Below, piece by piece: positions 9,191 through 13,781 of a stretch of DNA of 64,000 nt. The notes under the pieces were generated by a model. That model worked only from the letters and a program-made list of their open reading frames with translations. It had not been told where the DNA came from and made no database searches. Made by a program: the position numbers and the translations under genes. The DNA comes from Candidatus Bathyarchaeota archaeon (GTDB lineage Archaea; Thermoproteota; Bathyarchaeia; 40CM-2-53-6). Numbering within the stretch: position 1 is the stretch's first letter; each line of letters opens with the position of its first letter. The DNA is taken from NCBI GenBank assembly GCA_963733055.1, contig CAVTBR010000003.1, forward strand, positions 672,001 to 736,000, read 5' to 3'.

Positions 9191-9718
9191 TTAGGTCTTT
9201 CGTTTCTCGCGTTCGACCGAAAGCGTATCATCCACCTTAAGCAAGGCAGCGCCCGCCAAATCTCCGATAACTTCTATCATAAGTATCCTATCCGGATGCT
9301 CTAGGTTGACAGTTCGTTCAATCTTTTTCGCTATCGTGTCAATTATCGTCTTGCTCGAAAGTCCGGTGTGACGTTTCTCAACCGTTATCCTGAACGTCTC
9401 CTTCTCTGCAATTCCCTCAGCCAACGCGAGAGCTGAGGATTGTATTGCCTCGAGCTTCGCTTCTGTAACAGTTTGAACCGGAACCAACTTCAGTGTGTAT
9501 TTGAACTCCCAAGGCCTTTCTTTTAGGAGCTCGCGAAGGTCGTGAATCGCTTTAACAACGTTGAGCTTGGTTTTGGCGACAACCAACCCTATGACTGATG
9601 TGGTTTCGATCGTTGACCCACGGTCTCCAACTTCTCCGAGGAGGTACCACATCTCGCTGCAAGTATTCTTCTCGTTTCCTCTACTGGTTGAGACGACCAG
9701 ATTGAAGTCTTTCAGCAA
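9191..9718 (-). CDS. THUMP-domain RNA-binding protein (Tan1-like)
   Basis: FNLVVSTSRGNE, TFRITVEKR, VNLEHPD..LMIEVIG. Confidence 0.85.
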   Translation of the reverse strand: MLKDFNLVVSTSRGNEKNTCSEMWYLLGEVGDRGSTIETTSVIGLVVAKTKLNVVKAIHDLRELLKERPWEFKYTLKLVPVQTVTEAKLEAIQSSALALAEGIAEKETFRITVEKRHTGLSSKTIIDTIAKKIERTVNLEHPDRILMIEVIGDLAGAALLKVDDTLSVEREKRKT

Positions 9719-9761: not shown

Positions 9762-10385
9762 CTATCTTGGCCTACGCTGGCGCAGGCAACGAATTATCTC
9801 CGACCTCTCTACCGGCCCCTCCCGCAAAATGGCGATTTTTGCTTGGGTTAGGTCCACAACCGTGGAGGCTACGCCGAGCGAGGATCTGCCTCCGTCCAAC
9901 ACAACGTCTACGCGGTCTCCGAGTTCCTTCAAAGCTTCTACCGCTGTCGTCGCCGGGGGTTTTCCCGAGAGATTTGCGCTAGTCCCTATCAGTGCACCCG
10001 AACAAAGTTCCAGTAAGTTCAAGCAAATGGGATGCTTCGGTGAGCGTACGCCTACCCTTCCCTCCGGTGCAAGTATTGTAGGGGCAATCTCTTGAGAGCG
10101 CAGAATCATCGTCAATGGTCCAGGCCAAAAACTCTCAGCTACTCGTCTCGCACGATCTGTCACTTGCGTAAGCCTTTCCGCATCTGCTAACCCTTTCACC
10201 AAGACAGGCGGTGGCCTAGTTCGATCTCCCTTTACCTCCAAAGTCCTCTTGATCGCTAATTCATTCAGGGGATCGCATCCCAAACCGTATACGGTGTCTG
10301 TTGGGTAGCAAATTACTCCACCTTTGGCGACCGTGTCTGCCGCGCTCGCCAACCCATCCAAATCCGCCTTCAATACGCGTACCAA
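9762..10385 (-). CDS. tsaC: Threonylcarbamoyl-AMP synthase, single YrdC domain (TsaC-type)
   Basis: YPTDTVYGLG, FWPGPLT, TSANLSG, STVVD, ILREG; no SUA5 C-terminal domain. Confidence 0.9.
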   Translation of the reverse strand: MVRVLKADLDGLASAADTVAKGGVICYPTDTVYGLGCDPLNELAIKRTLEVKGDRTRPPPVLVKGLADAERLTQVTDRARRVAESFWPGPLTMILRSQEIAPTILAPEGRVGVRSPKHPICLNLLELCSGALIGTSANLSGKPPATTAVEALKELGDRVDVVLDGGRSSLGVASTVVDLTQAKIAILREGPVERSEIIRCLRQRRPR

Positions 10386-10486: not shown

Positions 10487-11437
10487 TTGGAGGCACGGAT
10501 TGTTGTTCACGGTGGAGCCGGATTCTGGAGAAGAGACATTAAACTGGGTAGAGAGGGGGTGCAGAAGGCTGCGTCAGCTGGCTCGAAGGTTCTCGCCACC
10601 GGTGGGTGCGCGCTTGACGCGGTTGAAACCGCCGTCTCGGTAATGGAAGACGACCCCATCTTCAACGCTGGCAAGGGTTCTGCGCTGACCTACGTCGGTA
10701 CGGTGGAGATGGATGCAGCAATAATGGATGGACGGGATCTGTCGGCGGGCGCCGTCGCCTTGATCCGGAACACCAAGAATCCCGTACACCTTGCCCGAAT
10801 CGTGATGGAAAACACCGACCATGTACTATTAGCGGGGAAGACAGCAGAAAAGTTAGGTAGGGCGTATTGTCTGCCGACCGCTAACCCCATCACAGCTAAA
10901 CGTCGGAAAGCTTTCGCTGAGATGAAAAGGAATCCAATCAAGGGAAGATTGGAATGGCTGAAGCGAAGTCCTAGATTGATTCGTGAACATCCCGAAATTC
11001 TGGGTCACGATACAGTCGGGGCGGTGGCCGTCGACAGAGGTGGAAACTTCGCCTCAGCAGCGTCTACTGGAGGGATGGCGATGAAATTGCCTGGGAGAAT
11101 CGGTGATACACCATTGATAGGCGCTGGGTTGTACTCAGACAATCAAGCGGGAACGGCTACGGCAACTGGATGGGGAGAAATCGCAGTTAAGCTAGCCCTC
11201 TCAAGGACGACGTGTTTGATGATGGGGGAGGGACTATCCGCCACTAGGGCGGCTGAAGCCTGTGTTCGGATGGCCTCAACACGGTTGCACGGGCATGCAG
11301 GAGTCATCGCAATCGATCGAACCGGAAAGATGGCGGCCGTTCATAACACCGCTTACATGCCCTGGGCCTACTCTACTTCTACAATGAAACTACCAAAGGC
11401 AAGTGTCAGAGGGAAGATAGTATCCCGTTTGCGTTAG
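10487..11437 (+). CDS. iaaA: Isoaspartyl peptidase/L-asparaginase (Ntn hydrolase)
   Basis: IVVHGGAG, FNAGKGS, EMDAAIMDG, HDTVGAVA, STGG, GRIGDTP. Confidence 0.92.
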   Translation: MEARIVVHGGAGFWRRDIKLGREGVQKAASAGSKVLATGGCALDAVETAVSVMEDDPIFNAGKGSALTYVGTVEMDAAIMDGRDLSAGAVALIRNTKNPVHLARIVMENTDHVLLAGKTAEKLGRAYCLPTANPITAKRRKAFAEMKRNPIKGRLEWLKRSPRLIREHPEILGHDTVGAVAVDRGGNFASAASTGGMAMKLPGRIGDTPLIGAGLYSDNQAGTATATGWGEIAVKLALSRTTCLMMGEGLSATRAAEACVRMASTRLHGHAGVIAIDRTGKMAAVHNTAYMPWAYSTSTMKLPKASVRGKIVSRLR

Positions 11438-11503
11438 GCACCGGGCATGCGTCCCGCGACGTGTGGTAATGCGTTTTGCGCGCGTCGATTGACTTTCACG
11501 GCC

Positions 11504-11515
11504 AAAAGTTTAAAG
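11504..11515 (+). promoter_or_regulatory. BRE-TATA promoter for the microprotein/ABCE1 unit
   Basis: AAAAGTTTAAAG about 45 nt upstream of TTG 11561. Confidence 0.55.
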
Positions 11516-11560
11516 GAGCCTGCTTAACGGCTTACACGAACTCCATCACAGGTCCGACTC

Positions 11561-11653
11561 TTGAGTGAAGATAATTGGGACAGCGATGAAGACGACTGGA
11601 CCGACGATGAATGGGGAGAGGACGAAGGTTGGGGAGAAGAAGAGGAGTGGTAA
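11561..11653 (+). CDS. 30-aa acidic Trp-rich microprotein MSEDNWDSDEDDWTDDEWGEDEGWGEEEEW
   Basis: TTG start with AGGT SD-like sequence upstream, tandem TAATAA stop, strongly non-random composition; below the ORF-track cutoff. Confidence 0.7.
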   Translation: MSEDNWDSDEDDWTDDEWGEDEGWGEEEEW

Positions 11654-11732
11654 TAAGGCCCAGCCTCGACTTGCCTGATTTTGATTTAGGAACCTAACTA
11701 AACTGAACATTGATTCGAGAGATGAGGTAATC

Positions 11733-13511
11733 TTGTTACGCGTCGCTACACTGGACAAGGAACATTGCAAGCCAGATGACTGTGGCATACCGTGTTACCG
11801 TTTCTGCCCTGAGGTTCTGAATAGAAGATACGCTATCAAATTCATAGCAGGACAGAAGAAACCCATAATCGACGAGGACCTCTGCACCGGTTGCGGAATC
11901 TGCATCAAGAAATGCCCCTTCGACGCGATCAGCATAGTGAAGCTCCCGCAAGAGCTTGACGGGGAATGCATTCACAGTTATGGCGTAAACGAATTCAAAC
12001 TCTTCAGACTACCCGTCCCCAGCCCCGGCACACTCATCGGGCTCGTGGGAAGAAACGGCACGGGAAAGAGCACAGCCCTCCGAATATTGGGCGGAGAGAT
12101 GAAACCGAACTTCGGCACACCTGAAACCGCGACCGACTGGGATACCGTCCTAAAGAGATACCGAGGGACTCTGCTTCACGAATACTTCACCAACGTCTCC
12201 ACTGGCAGCATGAGGATCGTTCACAAACCGCAACACGTCGACAAACTCGGCGAGGTCATCAAAGGAAAGATTGGCGGGTTGTTGAATAAGGTCAATGAGC
12301 GCGGAAAGCTCGCGGAACTGATCGATGACCTCGAATTGAAACCGCTGCTCGAACAAGACGCGAAGGTGTTGAGCGGCGGTGAACTGCAAAGGGTTGCTAT
12401 CGCAGCGGCTATATCCAGAAACGCCGACGTCTACATCTTTGACGAACCATCAAGTTACCTAGACGTTTACCAACGAATTCGAGCAGCAAGGAGCATAAGG
12501 AAACTACTGGCAGAGAGAAAGACCGTACTCGTTGCCGAGCATGACTTGGCAATGCTCGACTACCTCTCGGACGAAGTCTACCTAGTTTACGGTCAGCCCG
12601 GATCATACGGCATCGTATCGCACGTTCACCCAACACGAAGCGGAATCAACGATTACCTCTCCGGATTCCTGCCCGACGAAAACATGAGGTTCAGAGATGA
12701 CCCAATCCGATTCCACGTTAGACCACCGAGGCAAATTGACTTCGAATCTCAAACCAGACTTGAATGGCCAAAGATCACGAAGAAGGTTGGGGAGTTTCAA
12801 CTCCAGGTTGACCCAGGCTACGTTGCGGGCGGCGAAATCATTGGAATACTTGGGCCCAATGGAATCGGAAAGACCACATTCATAAAAGAACTCCTCGCAT
12901 ACTACGAAAAATCAAGTCAAAATCAACTCCAAGTTAGTTACAAACCACAATACATCTCCTCAACCTACCAGGGGAACGTTCAGGAACTTCTCATGAGCGT
13001 TGTAGACGACTATTCATCCGCAATGTTCACCGACGAAGTGATCCGCCCCTTATCCATCACGAAGCTCCTCGACCGGAAGATAACCGAACTGAGCGGGGGA
13101 GAACTTCAACGGGTCGCGATTACTGCCTGCCTCGGAAAAACGGCTCAAGTCTACTTACTCGACGAACCAAGCGTGTTCCTAGATGTTGAGGAGAGGCTGA
13201 ACGTAGCTAAGGCGGTTAGGCATTTAGTTGACGCTCGACAAGCTTTCGCCTTTGTGGTTGAACACGACATTGTCACGCAAGATTTCCTTGCGGACCGTAT
13301 GATGGTTTTCAAGGGAACACCTAGCGTCGACGGCTACACTTCCAACCCGATGCCTTTGCGGGAAGCGATGAATGTCTTCCTTTCCGAAATGGGAATCACA
13401 TTTAGACGCGACCCCGACACGCAGCGTCCGCGAATAAACAAGTTGGATAGTAAGCTGGACAGGGAACAGAAGAGCTCTGGCGAATTCTACTACGTTGCCG
13501 CCAGCGAATGA
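11733..13511 (+). CDS. rli: Ribosome recycling ATPase ABCE1/RLI
   Basis: N-terminal 2x[4Fe-4S] Cys motifs (CKPDDC..C..CP; CTGCGICIKKCP), two ABC domains with LSGGELQR, ITFRRD..RPRINK. Confidence 0.97.
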   Translation: MLRVATLDKEHCKPDDCGIPCYRFCPEVLNRRYAIKFIAGQKKPIIDEDLCTGCGICIKKCPFDAISIVKLPQELDGECIHSYGVNEFKLFRLPVPSPGTLIGLVGRNGTGKSTALRILGGEMKPNFGTPETATDWDTVLKRYRGTLLHEYFTNVSTGSMRIVHKPQHVDKLGEVIKGKIGGLLNKVNERGKLAELIDDLELKPLLEQDAKVLSGGELQRVAIAAAISRNADVYIFDEPSSYLDVYQRIRAARSIRKLLAERKTVLVAEHDLAMLDYLSDEVYLVYGQPGSYGIVSHVHPTRSGINDYLSGFLPDENMRFRDDPIRFHVRPPRQIDFESQTRLEWPKITKKVGEFQLQVDPGYVAGGEIIGILGPNGIGKTTFIKELLAYYEKSSQNQLQVSYKPQYISSTYQGNVQELLMSVVDDYSSAMFTDEVIRPLSITKLLDRKITELSGGELQRVAITACLGKTAQVYLLDEPSVFLDVEERLNVAKAVRHLVDARQAFAFVVEHDIVTQDFLADRMMVFKGTPSVDGYTSNPMPLREAMNVFLSEMGITFRRDPDTQRPRINKLDSKLDREQKSSGEFYYVAASE

Positions 13512-13550: not shown

Positions 13551-13781
13551 TTGGAGACCAAAATCCAAGTGACAACGAATTACTGTCTAGAATGTGGAGG
13601 AATATTGAGCTACGATAGCGCCCTGAAGCATTACACCTGCAAGAGCTGCGGACTCACTACAAGCGCACAACAACTCATGGAAGGCCGACTGAAACTGAGG
13701 GAGCGAGAATCTCCAGAGGAACAACGCAGGCGCAAACAGAATGACTACCTGAAATGGTGGCTCTCCAAGAAACCCGATTAA
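13551..13781 (+). CDS. Small Zn-ribbon protein
   Basis: CLECGG...CKSCG, C-terminal YLKWWL. Confidence 0.75.
   Translation: METKIQVTTNYCLECGGILSYDSALKHYTCKSCGLTTSAQQLMEGRLKLRERESPEEQRRRKQNDYLKWWLSKKPD

Follow-up and report, generated by a model that had tools for sequence, protein, structure and literature searches.

A Predicted Microprotein Gene Directly Upstream of ABCE1

The window analyzed here is a 64,000-nucleotide stretch of DNA from a Candidatus Bathyarchaeota archaeon, in which a short open reading frame (ORF) for an acidic, Trp-rich microprotein lies directly upstream of the gene for ABCE1 (Rli). The ORF, its putative expression signals, and ABCE1 were located at the following positions (nt, nucleotides; aa, amino acids; SD, Shine-Dalgarno; BRE, B recognition element).

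11502..11516, + strand: BRE/TATA-like promoter CCAAAAG TTTAAAGG, ~45 nt upstream of the microprotein start, predicted from the sequence
11550..11553, + strand: weak SD-like AGGT, 8-11 nt before the start; putative ribosome-binding site
11561..11653, + strand: microprotein gene, 30 codons, TTG start, TAA stop at 11651-11653; product acidic with periodic Trp
11654..11732, + strand: spacer to ABCE1 with a second TAA, short T-runs (GATTTTGATTT, 11678-11688), and an SD-like GAGGT at 11724-11728
11733..13511, + strand: ABCE1/Rli, 592 aa, TTG start; two Pfam ABC_tran domains and 4Fe-4S (Fer4) domains

The ORF reads M(TTG)SEDNWDSDEDDWTDDEWGEDEGWGEEEEW, and its product is the 30-aa peptide MSEDNWDSDEDDWTDDEWGEDEGWGEEEEW. 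Seventeen residues are Asp or Glu and none is Lys, Arg, or His, which results in a net charge of about -17. Trp occupies positions 6, 13, 18, 24, and 30 (spacings of 7, 5, 6, and 6) and is the sole type of hydrophobic residue in the peptide, which ends in EEEEW-COOH. An earlier note on this DNA had described the same composition (17 Asp/Glu, five Trp spaced 5-7 residues apart, no basic residues), a BRE-TATA element in front of the ORF, and a distance of 79 nt to rli. The translation, the element CCAAAAG-TTTAAAGG at 11502-11516, and the 79-nt gap between the stop and the ABCE1 start codon at 11733 agree with that description. The start codon had to be corrected from ATG to TTG. The tandem stop that had also been reported is present in the window, where a second TAA (11654-11656) follows the first directly, but only 3 of 20 loci of the window genus possess one, and it is therefore not a conserved feature. 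When the 2,884,337-base genome was translated in six frames, exactly one 20-aa window with at least three Trp and at least nine Asp/Glu was found, and this was the microprotein ORF. Just two other ORFs ended in [DE]3-W, with lengths of 8 and 18 codons.

Evidence for a Protein-coding Gene under Selection

A six-frame scan upstream of rli in related archaea, as proposed in the earlier note, was performed on 30 ABCE1 loci from the same order with ~1.5 kb of flanking sequence each. An equivalent acidic, Trp-containing ORF ending in [DE]4-W-stop was found on the same strand upstream of ABCE1 in all 30 loci, at a measured distance of about 49-185 nt. The reading frame was open and the Trp-stop end was kept in every one of them, and the indels were multiples of three. 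Selection was analyzed in a nucleotide alignment of the 20 loci of the window genus, which contained 29 ungapped codon columns. Variable sites at codon positions 1, 2, and 3 numbered 9, 4, and 25, respectively. The pooled proportion of synonymous differences (pS) was 0.78 versus 0.088 for nonsynonymous differences (pN), corresponding to a pN/pS of 0.11, and the median dN/dS, determined from the 67 of 171 pairs without saturation, was 0.059. The start position, shared by all 20 loci, was occupied by TTG in 16 cases, ATG in three, and GTG in one, which are the three codons able to initiate translation. For an RNA element, no Rfam match to the region was obtained at E ≤ 1, and the predicted RNA fold was not better than that of shuffled sequences (z = -1.0).

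The codon-position variation, the pN/pS ratio, the exchange of start codons, and the missing RNA signal together exclude, within the reach of comparative data, both a chance ORF and a structured RNA. Judged by these data, the ORF is almost certainly a real gene, and the substitution pattern indicates that it is under strong purifying selection. The opposite view would be that no gene exists here and that the ORF arose by chance within purine-rich (GAR-repeat) regulatory or spacer DNA. The sequence is of low complexity and missing from protein catalogues, as would be expected in that case. A chance ORF is not compatible with variation concentrated at third positions, with start codons that change only among ATG, GTG, and TTG, with the presence of promoters and SD sites, or with a frame that stays open up to its Trp-stop end in 30 of 30 loci despite indels. 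This explanation is hardly credible and appears already refuted as far as the comparative data go.

Persistent Pairing with ABCE1

The linkage was followed beyond the order. In 30 genomes from other orders of the class, the ORF was located on the same strand no more than ~300 nt upstream of ABCE1 in 16 genomes, at ~615 nt in one more, and in divergent orientation in another. Other classes contributed 29 genomes with an ABCE1 orthologue, of which nine carried the ORF on the same strand within ~400 nt upstream and one carried it divergently. The nine include two genomes of a Sul7d-bearing, Sulfolobaceae-like family (f36), whose ORF is separated from the ABCE1 start by ~50 nt (L101 and L102). Sul7d was used as the marker of the Sulfolobaceae type, and its control matched only Sulfolobus acidocaldarius. 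A further set of 77 named loci comprised 15 from non-Nitrososphaeria Thermoproteota and 62 others. A copy near ABCE1 was present in eight of the 15; six of these lie upstream on the same strand with nothing between the two genes, one is separated from ABCE1 by a zinc-ribbon gene, and one is divergent. No copy near ABCE1 was found in the named loci of Nitrososphaeria (0 of 15), Asgard (0 of 5), euryarchaeal (0 of 27), DPANN (0 of 9), or unclassified archaea (0 of 6), where nine of the 62 negative loci (L123, L134, L142, L143, L149, L162, L167, L169, and L174) hold less than ~330 nt of upstream sequence.

The genes on either side of the pair were compared in 23 linked loci. The upstream neighbor was Asparaginase_2 in seven loci, Sua5 in five, and ABC_tran in four; THUMP, HAD, radical SAM, 2-Hacid_dh, and MFS each occurred once, and two loci had no Pfam match at this position. 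Downstream, TopoVI-A, dCMP deaminase, and FBPase were found three times each, MoCF_biosynth and TIM (triose-phosphate isomerase) twice each, along with others. In total, at least 8 Pfam families flank the pair upstream and at least 10 downstream. Because the flanking genes vary, the peptide-ABCE1 pair has been kept through many rearrangements. A syntenic ORF in relatives, on which the earlier note had made its proposal depend, is thus found across classes of Thermoproteota while the flanks change. This persistent pairing would be the main argument for a functional tie with ABCE1. A function of the microprotein connected to ABCE1 or to ribosome recycling is quite possible on these grounds, although we stop short of calling it probable.

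Expression Signals and Action in Cis or in Trans

In the 20 genus loci, the best conserved non-coding block was the promoter (..CCAAAAGnTTTAAAG..). Its mean pairwise identity was 0.76, compared with 0.34 further upstream, 0.57 in the 5' leader, and 0.83 in the ORF. TATA boxes were present 45-55 nt upstream of the microprotein start in most other families. Most members of the genus carry GGAG ~10 nt before the start; several other families have a strong GGAGGTG 6-10 nt before it, and others a partial match. T-runs follow the microprotein stop in most other families. The spacer in front of ABCE1 is poorly conserved within the window genus, its T-runs are short only, and no clear second TATA box was seen in it; ABCE1 is preceded there by an SD-like GAGGT or GGAGG. 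As the spacer contains no clear second promoter, we infer a shared transcript in the window genus, where the microprotein gene would probably also head the ABCE1 transcript. A separate TATA box for ABCE1, 30-40 nt ahead of its start codon, was seen in several lineages, with T-runs between the microprotein gene and ABCE1.

Copies away from ABCE1 were also found. Stand-alone copies with their own promoter, SD site, and T-runs occur in many relatives, and some genomes contain several copies, with three in G200. Several unlinked copies (L062, L063, L065, L066, and L068) are convergent with the next gene and therefore cannot be leaders. Two f13 genomes share a conserved unlinked copy that is flanked by hypF and hypD, and genome G254 has the gene order asparaginase, peptide, Obg-like GTPase, with ABCE1 elsewhere. 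The stand-alone and multiple copies and the TATA boxes of ABCE1 itself therefore suggest that the product acts in trans and not as an upstream ORF. We regard action in trans as likely.

The alternative is a leader ORF that works in cis. The acidic nascent chain, or termination at the stop codon, would then control read-through of a T-rich terminator or re-initiation at ABCE1, and expression of the recycling factor would feed back to the status of the ribosome. Nascent chains rich in Asp and Glu are known to destabilize ribosomes. The linked ORFs are always upstream of ABCE1, codirectional, and separated by a short spacer, T-runs follow the stop in many families, and in the window genus there is no obvious second promoter and the SD site of ABCE1 resembles that of an internal cistron. 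A leader or upstream ORF should always be found in cis before the gene that it regulates, and this was not the case. Conserved stand-alone copies convergent with the next gene, multiple copies in some genomes, and the separate TATA boxes of ABCE1 in several lineages all argue against control in cis, as do selection on the exact Trp positions and the C-terminal residue and the lack of a structured RNA signal in the fold comparison and the Rfam search. Both a leader ORF and the feedback that it would provide are rather improbable. A Trp-sensing attenuator was considered and dropped, given the stand-alone copies and the lack of any connection between ABCE1 and Trp metabolism.

Distribution of the Family

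A census was performed with a strict DNA pattern for [DE]4-Trp-stop. The last codon of the pattern was TRR, so that a few matches end in Trp-Trp. The reversed pattern served as control, and the Methanobacteriota sample gave the background level. The following numbers of genomes with matches were obtained.

Whole phylum sample: 202 of 401 genomes; reversed control mostly 0 per genome
Own order without the window genome: 4 of 5 genomes
Other orders of the class: 45 of 54 genomes
Family f30: 23 of 23 genomes
Family f27: 28 of 32 genomes
Family f22: 14 of 16 genomes
Family f21: 3 of 56 genomes
Family f34: 2 of 24 genomes
Methanobacteriota sample: 3 of 61 genomes (two of them Trp-Trp, not stops); reversed control 6 of 61
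Asgard sample: 40 of 101 genomes; reversed control 12 of 101
Thermococci-type phylum sample: 58 of 61 genomes; reversed control 9 of 61

ABCE1 of family f21 is Nitrosopumilus-like (78-85% identity). The microprotein family, with lengths of 18-46 aa and an end of ...EEEEW, is widespread in Thermoproteota, the Sul7d-bearing family included, but not in ammonia oxidizers. The final [DE]-[DE]-Trp was invariant in all 38 aligned members. Some members are combined with basic sequence. At three loci of family f16 (L061, L063, and L076), a Lys-rich ORF such as MPKKGKKGKKKSKAS lies ~50 nt downstream of the acidic ORF, with an SD site seen in L063 and L076, and in family f13 (L062, L066, L068, and L078-L080) the acidic peptide itself starts basic (MSRKKKPPK...). 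The f16 and f13 forms, a group to which L072 also belongs, look like a split or fused basic-plus-acidic pair.

The examples retrieved from Asgard genomes were acidic ORFs of 24-37 aa ending in Trp (L197-L201, L208-L213, and L216). A recurrent subtype, present in five genomes, ends in ...[GP]PEDDEEDWDEEYDDEEDW. At two further Asgard loci, L202 and L203, an ORF of ~330 aa also ends in ...EEEEW. The Thermococcales form is 51-61 aa long, starts with a Lys-rich segment (MQPPKKKKK), and has an acidic, Trp-containing tail ending in ...WEEEEEW; it was found in 8 of 16 retrieved loci and in one further locus. In the other eight loci (L218, L220, L222, L224, and L227-L230), the motif is the C terminus of a 190-200-aa protein ending in ...YGLIEEEEEW. 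At one of these loci the protein is the TATA-binding protein (TBP) according to Pfam, and it aligns to PDB entry 1PCZ over residues 1-189.

Absence from Databases and Literature

The microprotein matched no family in Pfam or NCBIfam at E ≤ 1. Exact look-up of 20 sequences of family members and look-alikes in a collection of ~15 billion proteins returned none of them. A profile built from 27 members gave nothing at E ≤ 1e-3 among 8000 scored candidates, and one built from 38 members gave 0 matches against 1.84 billion representatives, a 25-position low-complexity profile being unable to reach significance. For the 51-aa Thermococcales form, a single match, a 52-aa protein, was obtained among 5.8 billion clusters. 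The nearest clusters in the ESM Atlas were unnamed "hypothetical proteins" of 30, 32, and 41 aa with scores of 0.84-0.78, which we treat as leads only. No description of an acidic Trp microprotein beside ABCE1 or in archaea was found in the open-access literature searched. The prediction of the earlier note that size cutoffs would miss such a gene is in line with 0 of 20 exact sequences being catalogued and with the lack of a Pfam or NCBIfam family. Going by these searches, the microprotein represents an unannotated gene family of Thermoproteota with no known relative.

Although ABCE1 occurs universally in archaea and eukaryotes and is essential, no archaeal accessory protein for it other than the ribosomal stalk is known. 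A conserved, strongly selected microprotein encoded beside ABCE1 is a concrete candidate for such a factor that is cheap to test; a peptide of 30 residues is accessible by synthesis, and the ABCE1-linked form ranges from Bathyarchaeia to the Sul7d-bearing, Sulfolobaceae-like family. The ABCE1 of Saccharolobus solfataricus is reportedly an established biochemical model. With the linked form in a Sulfolobaceae-like family and a look-alike in Thermococcales, the proposal could be examined directly in model archaea as soon as a laboratory strain is shown to carry the microORF. The analysis also exposes a family of archaeal genes missing from annotation pipelines and protein databases, and [D/E]n-Trp-COOH as a recurrent archaeal C-terminal motif that is carried by the TBP of Thermococcales as well.

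Proposed Docking Peptide and Known Ligands of ABCE1

A charge of about -17, hydrophobic residues that are exclusively Trp, and the invariant [DE]-[DE]-Trp end form the signature of a disordered acidic/aromatic docking motif. The microprotein is thus presumably intrinsically disordered. We propose that it is a free, trans-acting docking peptide of this type. The acidic runs would seek basic surfaces that bind nucleic acids or factors, and hydrophobic pockets would be filled by the Trp side chains, in particular by the last one. As the client, ABCE1 or the step of ribosome recycling would be most likely. The peptide would compete with, substitute for, or complement the known ligands of ABCE1, namely the tail of the ribosomal stalk protein aP1, which binds NBD1, and for the eukaryotic ABCE1 the N-terminal acidic motif of eIF3j. 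Alternatively, the peptide would cover the surface of the Fe-S domain with which ABCE1 binds RNA. Either mode would tune ATPase activity, ribosome binding, or release from the 30S subunit. Action in trans, ABCE1 as the partner, and the mode of docking are inferences, and the explanation as a whole, with ABCE1 as the client, is offered tentatively, as our best candidate and not as the probable answer.

Acidic or aromatic partners of ABCE1, to which the earlier note had pointed, are indeed documented. In archaea, residues L103, L106, and F107 at the aP1 C terminus bind to a hydrophobic cavity in NBD1 of ABCE1, and activation of the ATPase requires them (PMC6125642). The N terminus of eIF3j contacts ABCE1 near NBD1 and nucleotide-binding site I (NBSI) on the small subunit, at a site similar to that of aP1 (PMC7780240). 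The acidic motif of eIF3j is centered on a conserved Trp, and this Trp plugs a pocket of the RNA recognition motif (RRM) of eIF3b (PMC2824034). The microprotein may, as a mechanism, be a free-standing version of this known type of tail. It resembles the aP1 tail, which is likewise acidic and flexible and uses terminal hydrophobic or aromatic residues to bind the NBD1 cavity and activate the ATPase (PMC6125642). However, the aP1 tail folds into a short helix and has an L..LFG end, whereas the microprotein ends in EEEEW, has Trp as its only hydrophobic residue, and lacks a tether to the ribosome. Neither the Ribosomal_60s N-terminal domain nor the C-terminal L..LFG that define aP1 was found in the microprotein. 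The genome encodes its own aP1 elsewhere with an ordinary end (...LAGLGALFG; ...EEALAGLGALFG), and the microprotein would therefore be an additional element and not a replacement.

The likeness to eIF3j/Hcr1 consists of a Trp inside an acidic run, as in its N-terminal acidic (NTA) motif, which is a resemblance only (PMC2824034), and of the context of recycling and initiation. Unlike the microprotein, which has 30 aa and no domain or Pfam family, eIF3j is a eukaryotic protein of ~250 aa with a helical dimer core. Neither the helical dimerization core nor the C-terminal tail of eIF3j is present in the microprotein, and homology between the two is untestable on such simple sequence. Archaea are not known to have eIF3. 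A wider conjecture is that free "[D/E]n-Trp" peptides, encoded in at least three major archaeal lineages (Thermoproteota, Thermococcales, and Asgard), serve translation factors as soluble ligands. The ABCE1-linked form would then be the archaeal counterpart, and possibly the forerunner, of the Trp-centered motif of eIF3j/Hcr1, and would be a missing accessory factor that couples recycling to initiation in the absence of eIF3. We consider this conjecture improbable. The TBP tail of Thermococcales has the same terminal motif as the microprotein; there it is fused to a folded DNA-binding protein, whereas the microprotein is free-standing.

In an exploratory comparison, ABCE1 from lineages that bear the peptide was compared with sequences from Nitrososphaeria, euryarchaeal lineages, and DPANN. 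Four of seven charge-discriminating columns fall within the first 36 residues (positions 13, 20, 31, and 36), and all four make the Fe-S domain more basic. Residue 13, beside the first cluster cysteine, was Lys or Arg in 33 of 33 linked lineages examined, compared with 2 of 4 Bathyarchaeia with an unlinked copy, 1 of 13 Nitrososphaeria, and 2 of 20 euryarchaeal sequences. In two f16 genomes with unlinked copies the residue is Glu.

Weighing of the Explanations

Several observations weigh against ABCE1 as the client. No copy was present within 1.5 kb of ABCE1 in 12 of the 30 genomes from other orders or in 19 of the 29 from other classes, and Pyrobaculum-like genomes have kept the gene away from ABCE1. 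The many genomes with a distant gene would speak against an exclusive role at ABCE1. Overall, the interpretation given in the earlier note finds partial support, with a distribution of the gene that extends beyond linkage to ABCE1. The acidic ORFs of Asgard archaea neighbor DUF362, TrmO with an RNase Z-like gene, a TPR protein, and others, and the Thermococcales look-alikes have unrelated neighbors, in neither case ABCE1. Because the TBP of Thermococcales ends in ...EEEEEW, the motif may serve a reader other than ABCE1 or act as a general nucleic acid mimic. Common descent of the distant members with the peptide of Bathyarchaeia is unprovable because the sequences are of low complexity. The correlation at residue 13 is confounded by phylogeny, with few independent events, and can be taken as a lead only.

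Another explanation is a general polyanionic mimic or chaperone, in which the acidic residues stand for phosphates and the Trp residues for stacked bases, and which would shield or regulate basic DNA- or RNA-binding proteins. Clients could be ribosomal proteins, TBP-like factors, or RNases, and the gene would stand beside ABCE1 only as a result of inherited gene order or because it is co-expressed with the translation apparatus. Stand-alone and multicopy genes in contexts as varied as Na/Ca exchanger, PIN, HxlR, HD, Mut7-C, and hypF-hypD are consistent with this, and so are the similar peptides that Thermococcales and Asgard archaea encode at a distance from ABCE1 and a Thermococcales TBP with the same ...EEEEEW end. 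The Lys-rich ORFs of 15-18 aa that follow the acidic ORF at the f16 loci L061, L063, and L076 hint at charge-pairing partners, and the f13 form has a basic N-terminal segment fused to the acidic part. A mimic of this kind does not account for the same-strand pairing with ABCE1, which was kept through many rearrangements in several classes; neutral synteny over a range of 45-60% ABCE1 identity would be unusual. The strict EEEEW end and the conserved Trp positions also suggest a specific pocket and not bulk charge. We regard both the general mimic and its explanation of the ABCE1 adjacency as unlikely, though deserving serious attention. The idea of a histone chaperone is weakened somewhat: the Sul7d-bearing family f36 carries the gene, and Sulfolobaceae are not known to have histones.

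A role in Fe-S delivery was weighed as well. In analogy to Lto1, the C-terminal Trp would recruit the machinery for cluster insertion to the two 4Fe-4S sites of ABCE1, which is an Fe-S protein, and the peptide does end in [DE]-W-COOH. In eukaryotes, the targeting signal of cytosolic iron-sulfur protein assembly (CIA) is documented as [LIM]-[DES]-[WF]-COOH (PMC10245660), Lto1-Yae1 adapts Rli1 to the CIA targeting complex (PMC4523923), and the pocket for the signal lies between CIAO1 and CIAO2B (PMC12910081). In the 38 aligned members, the last residue is always Trp and position -2 is always Glu or Asp, as in this signal, but position -3 is also Glu or Asp in 38 of 38 and never Leu, Ile, or Met. 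The parallel to the C-terminal Trp of Lto1 drawn in the earlier note therefore holds for the last two residues and fails at the third, so that the Lto1-type signal is only half matched. In addition, the CIAO1-CIAO2B reader is eukaryotic and the targeting complex is described as absent from prokaryotes (PMC12910081). The microprotein lacks a deca-GX3 or any other domain with which it could hold ABCE1, and TBP, although not an Fe-S protein, has the same ending. A function as Fe-S adaptor is thus very improbable.

ABCE1 and Neighboring Genes

Orthologue-level matches to the ABCE1 of the window (E ≤ 1e-165) were obtained in 39 of 41 related genomes. The genomes G023 and G024, from other genera of the same family and 94% and 89% complete, respectively, gave a best ABCE1 match of only E ~1e-11. 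Named ABCE1 relatives place the organism in Bathyarchaeia; the nearest of them, with 77% identity, is labelled as coming from an uncultured Candidatus Bathyarchaeia archaeon. The further genes around the pair were assigned as follows.

9191-9718, - strand: THUMP-like gene, label read from the sequence
9762-10385, - strand: Sua5/YrdC-like gene, label read from the sequence
10487-11437, + strand: Asparaginase_2 (Pfam)
13551..13781, + strand: zinc-ribbon protein of 76 aa directly after ABCE1, with a basic tail ...KQNDYLKWWLSKK (also given as ...RRRKQNDYLKWWLSKK)

The 76-aa protein showed a sub-threshold Pfam match to the TFIIB zinc ribbon (19.6 bits versus a cut-off of 29). Its gene was found downstream of ABCE1 in 19 of the 20 genus loci and in L021 and L028, and it is possibly part of the same cluster. 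A different zinc-ribbon ORF, with a CPKCG... start as read from the sequence, lies between the acidic peptide and ABCE1 at the loci L114 and L124 of archaea named as Thermoprotei. Sua5, THUMP, and asparaginase genes, assigned by Pfam in those cases, recur beside the peptide in other families.

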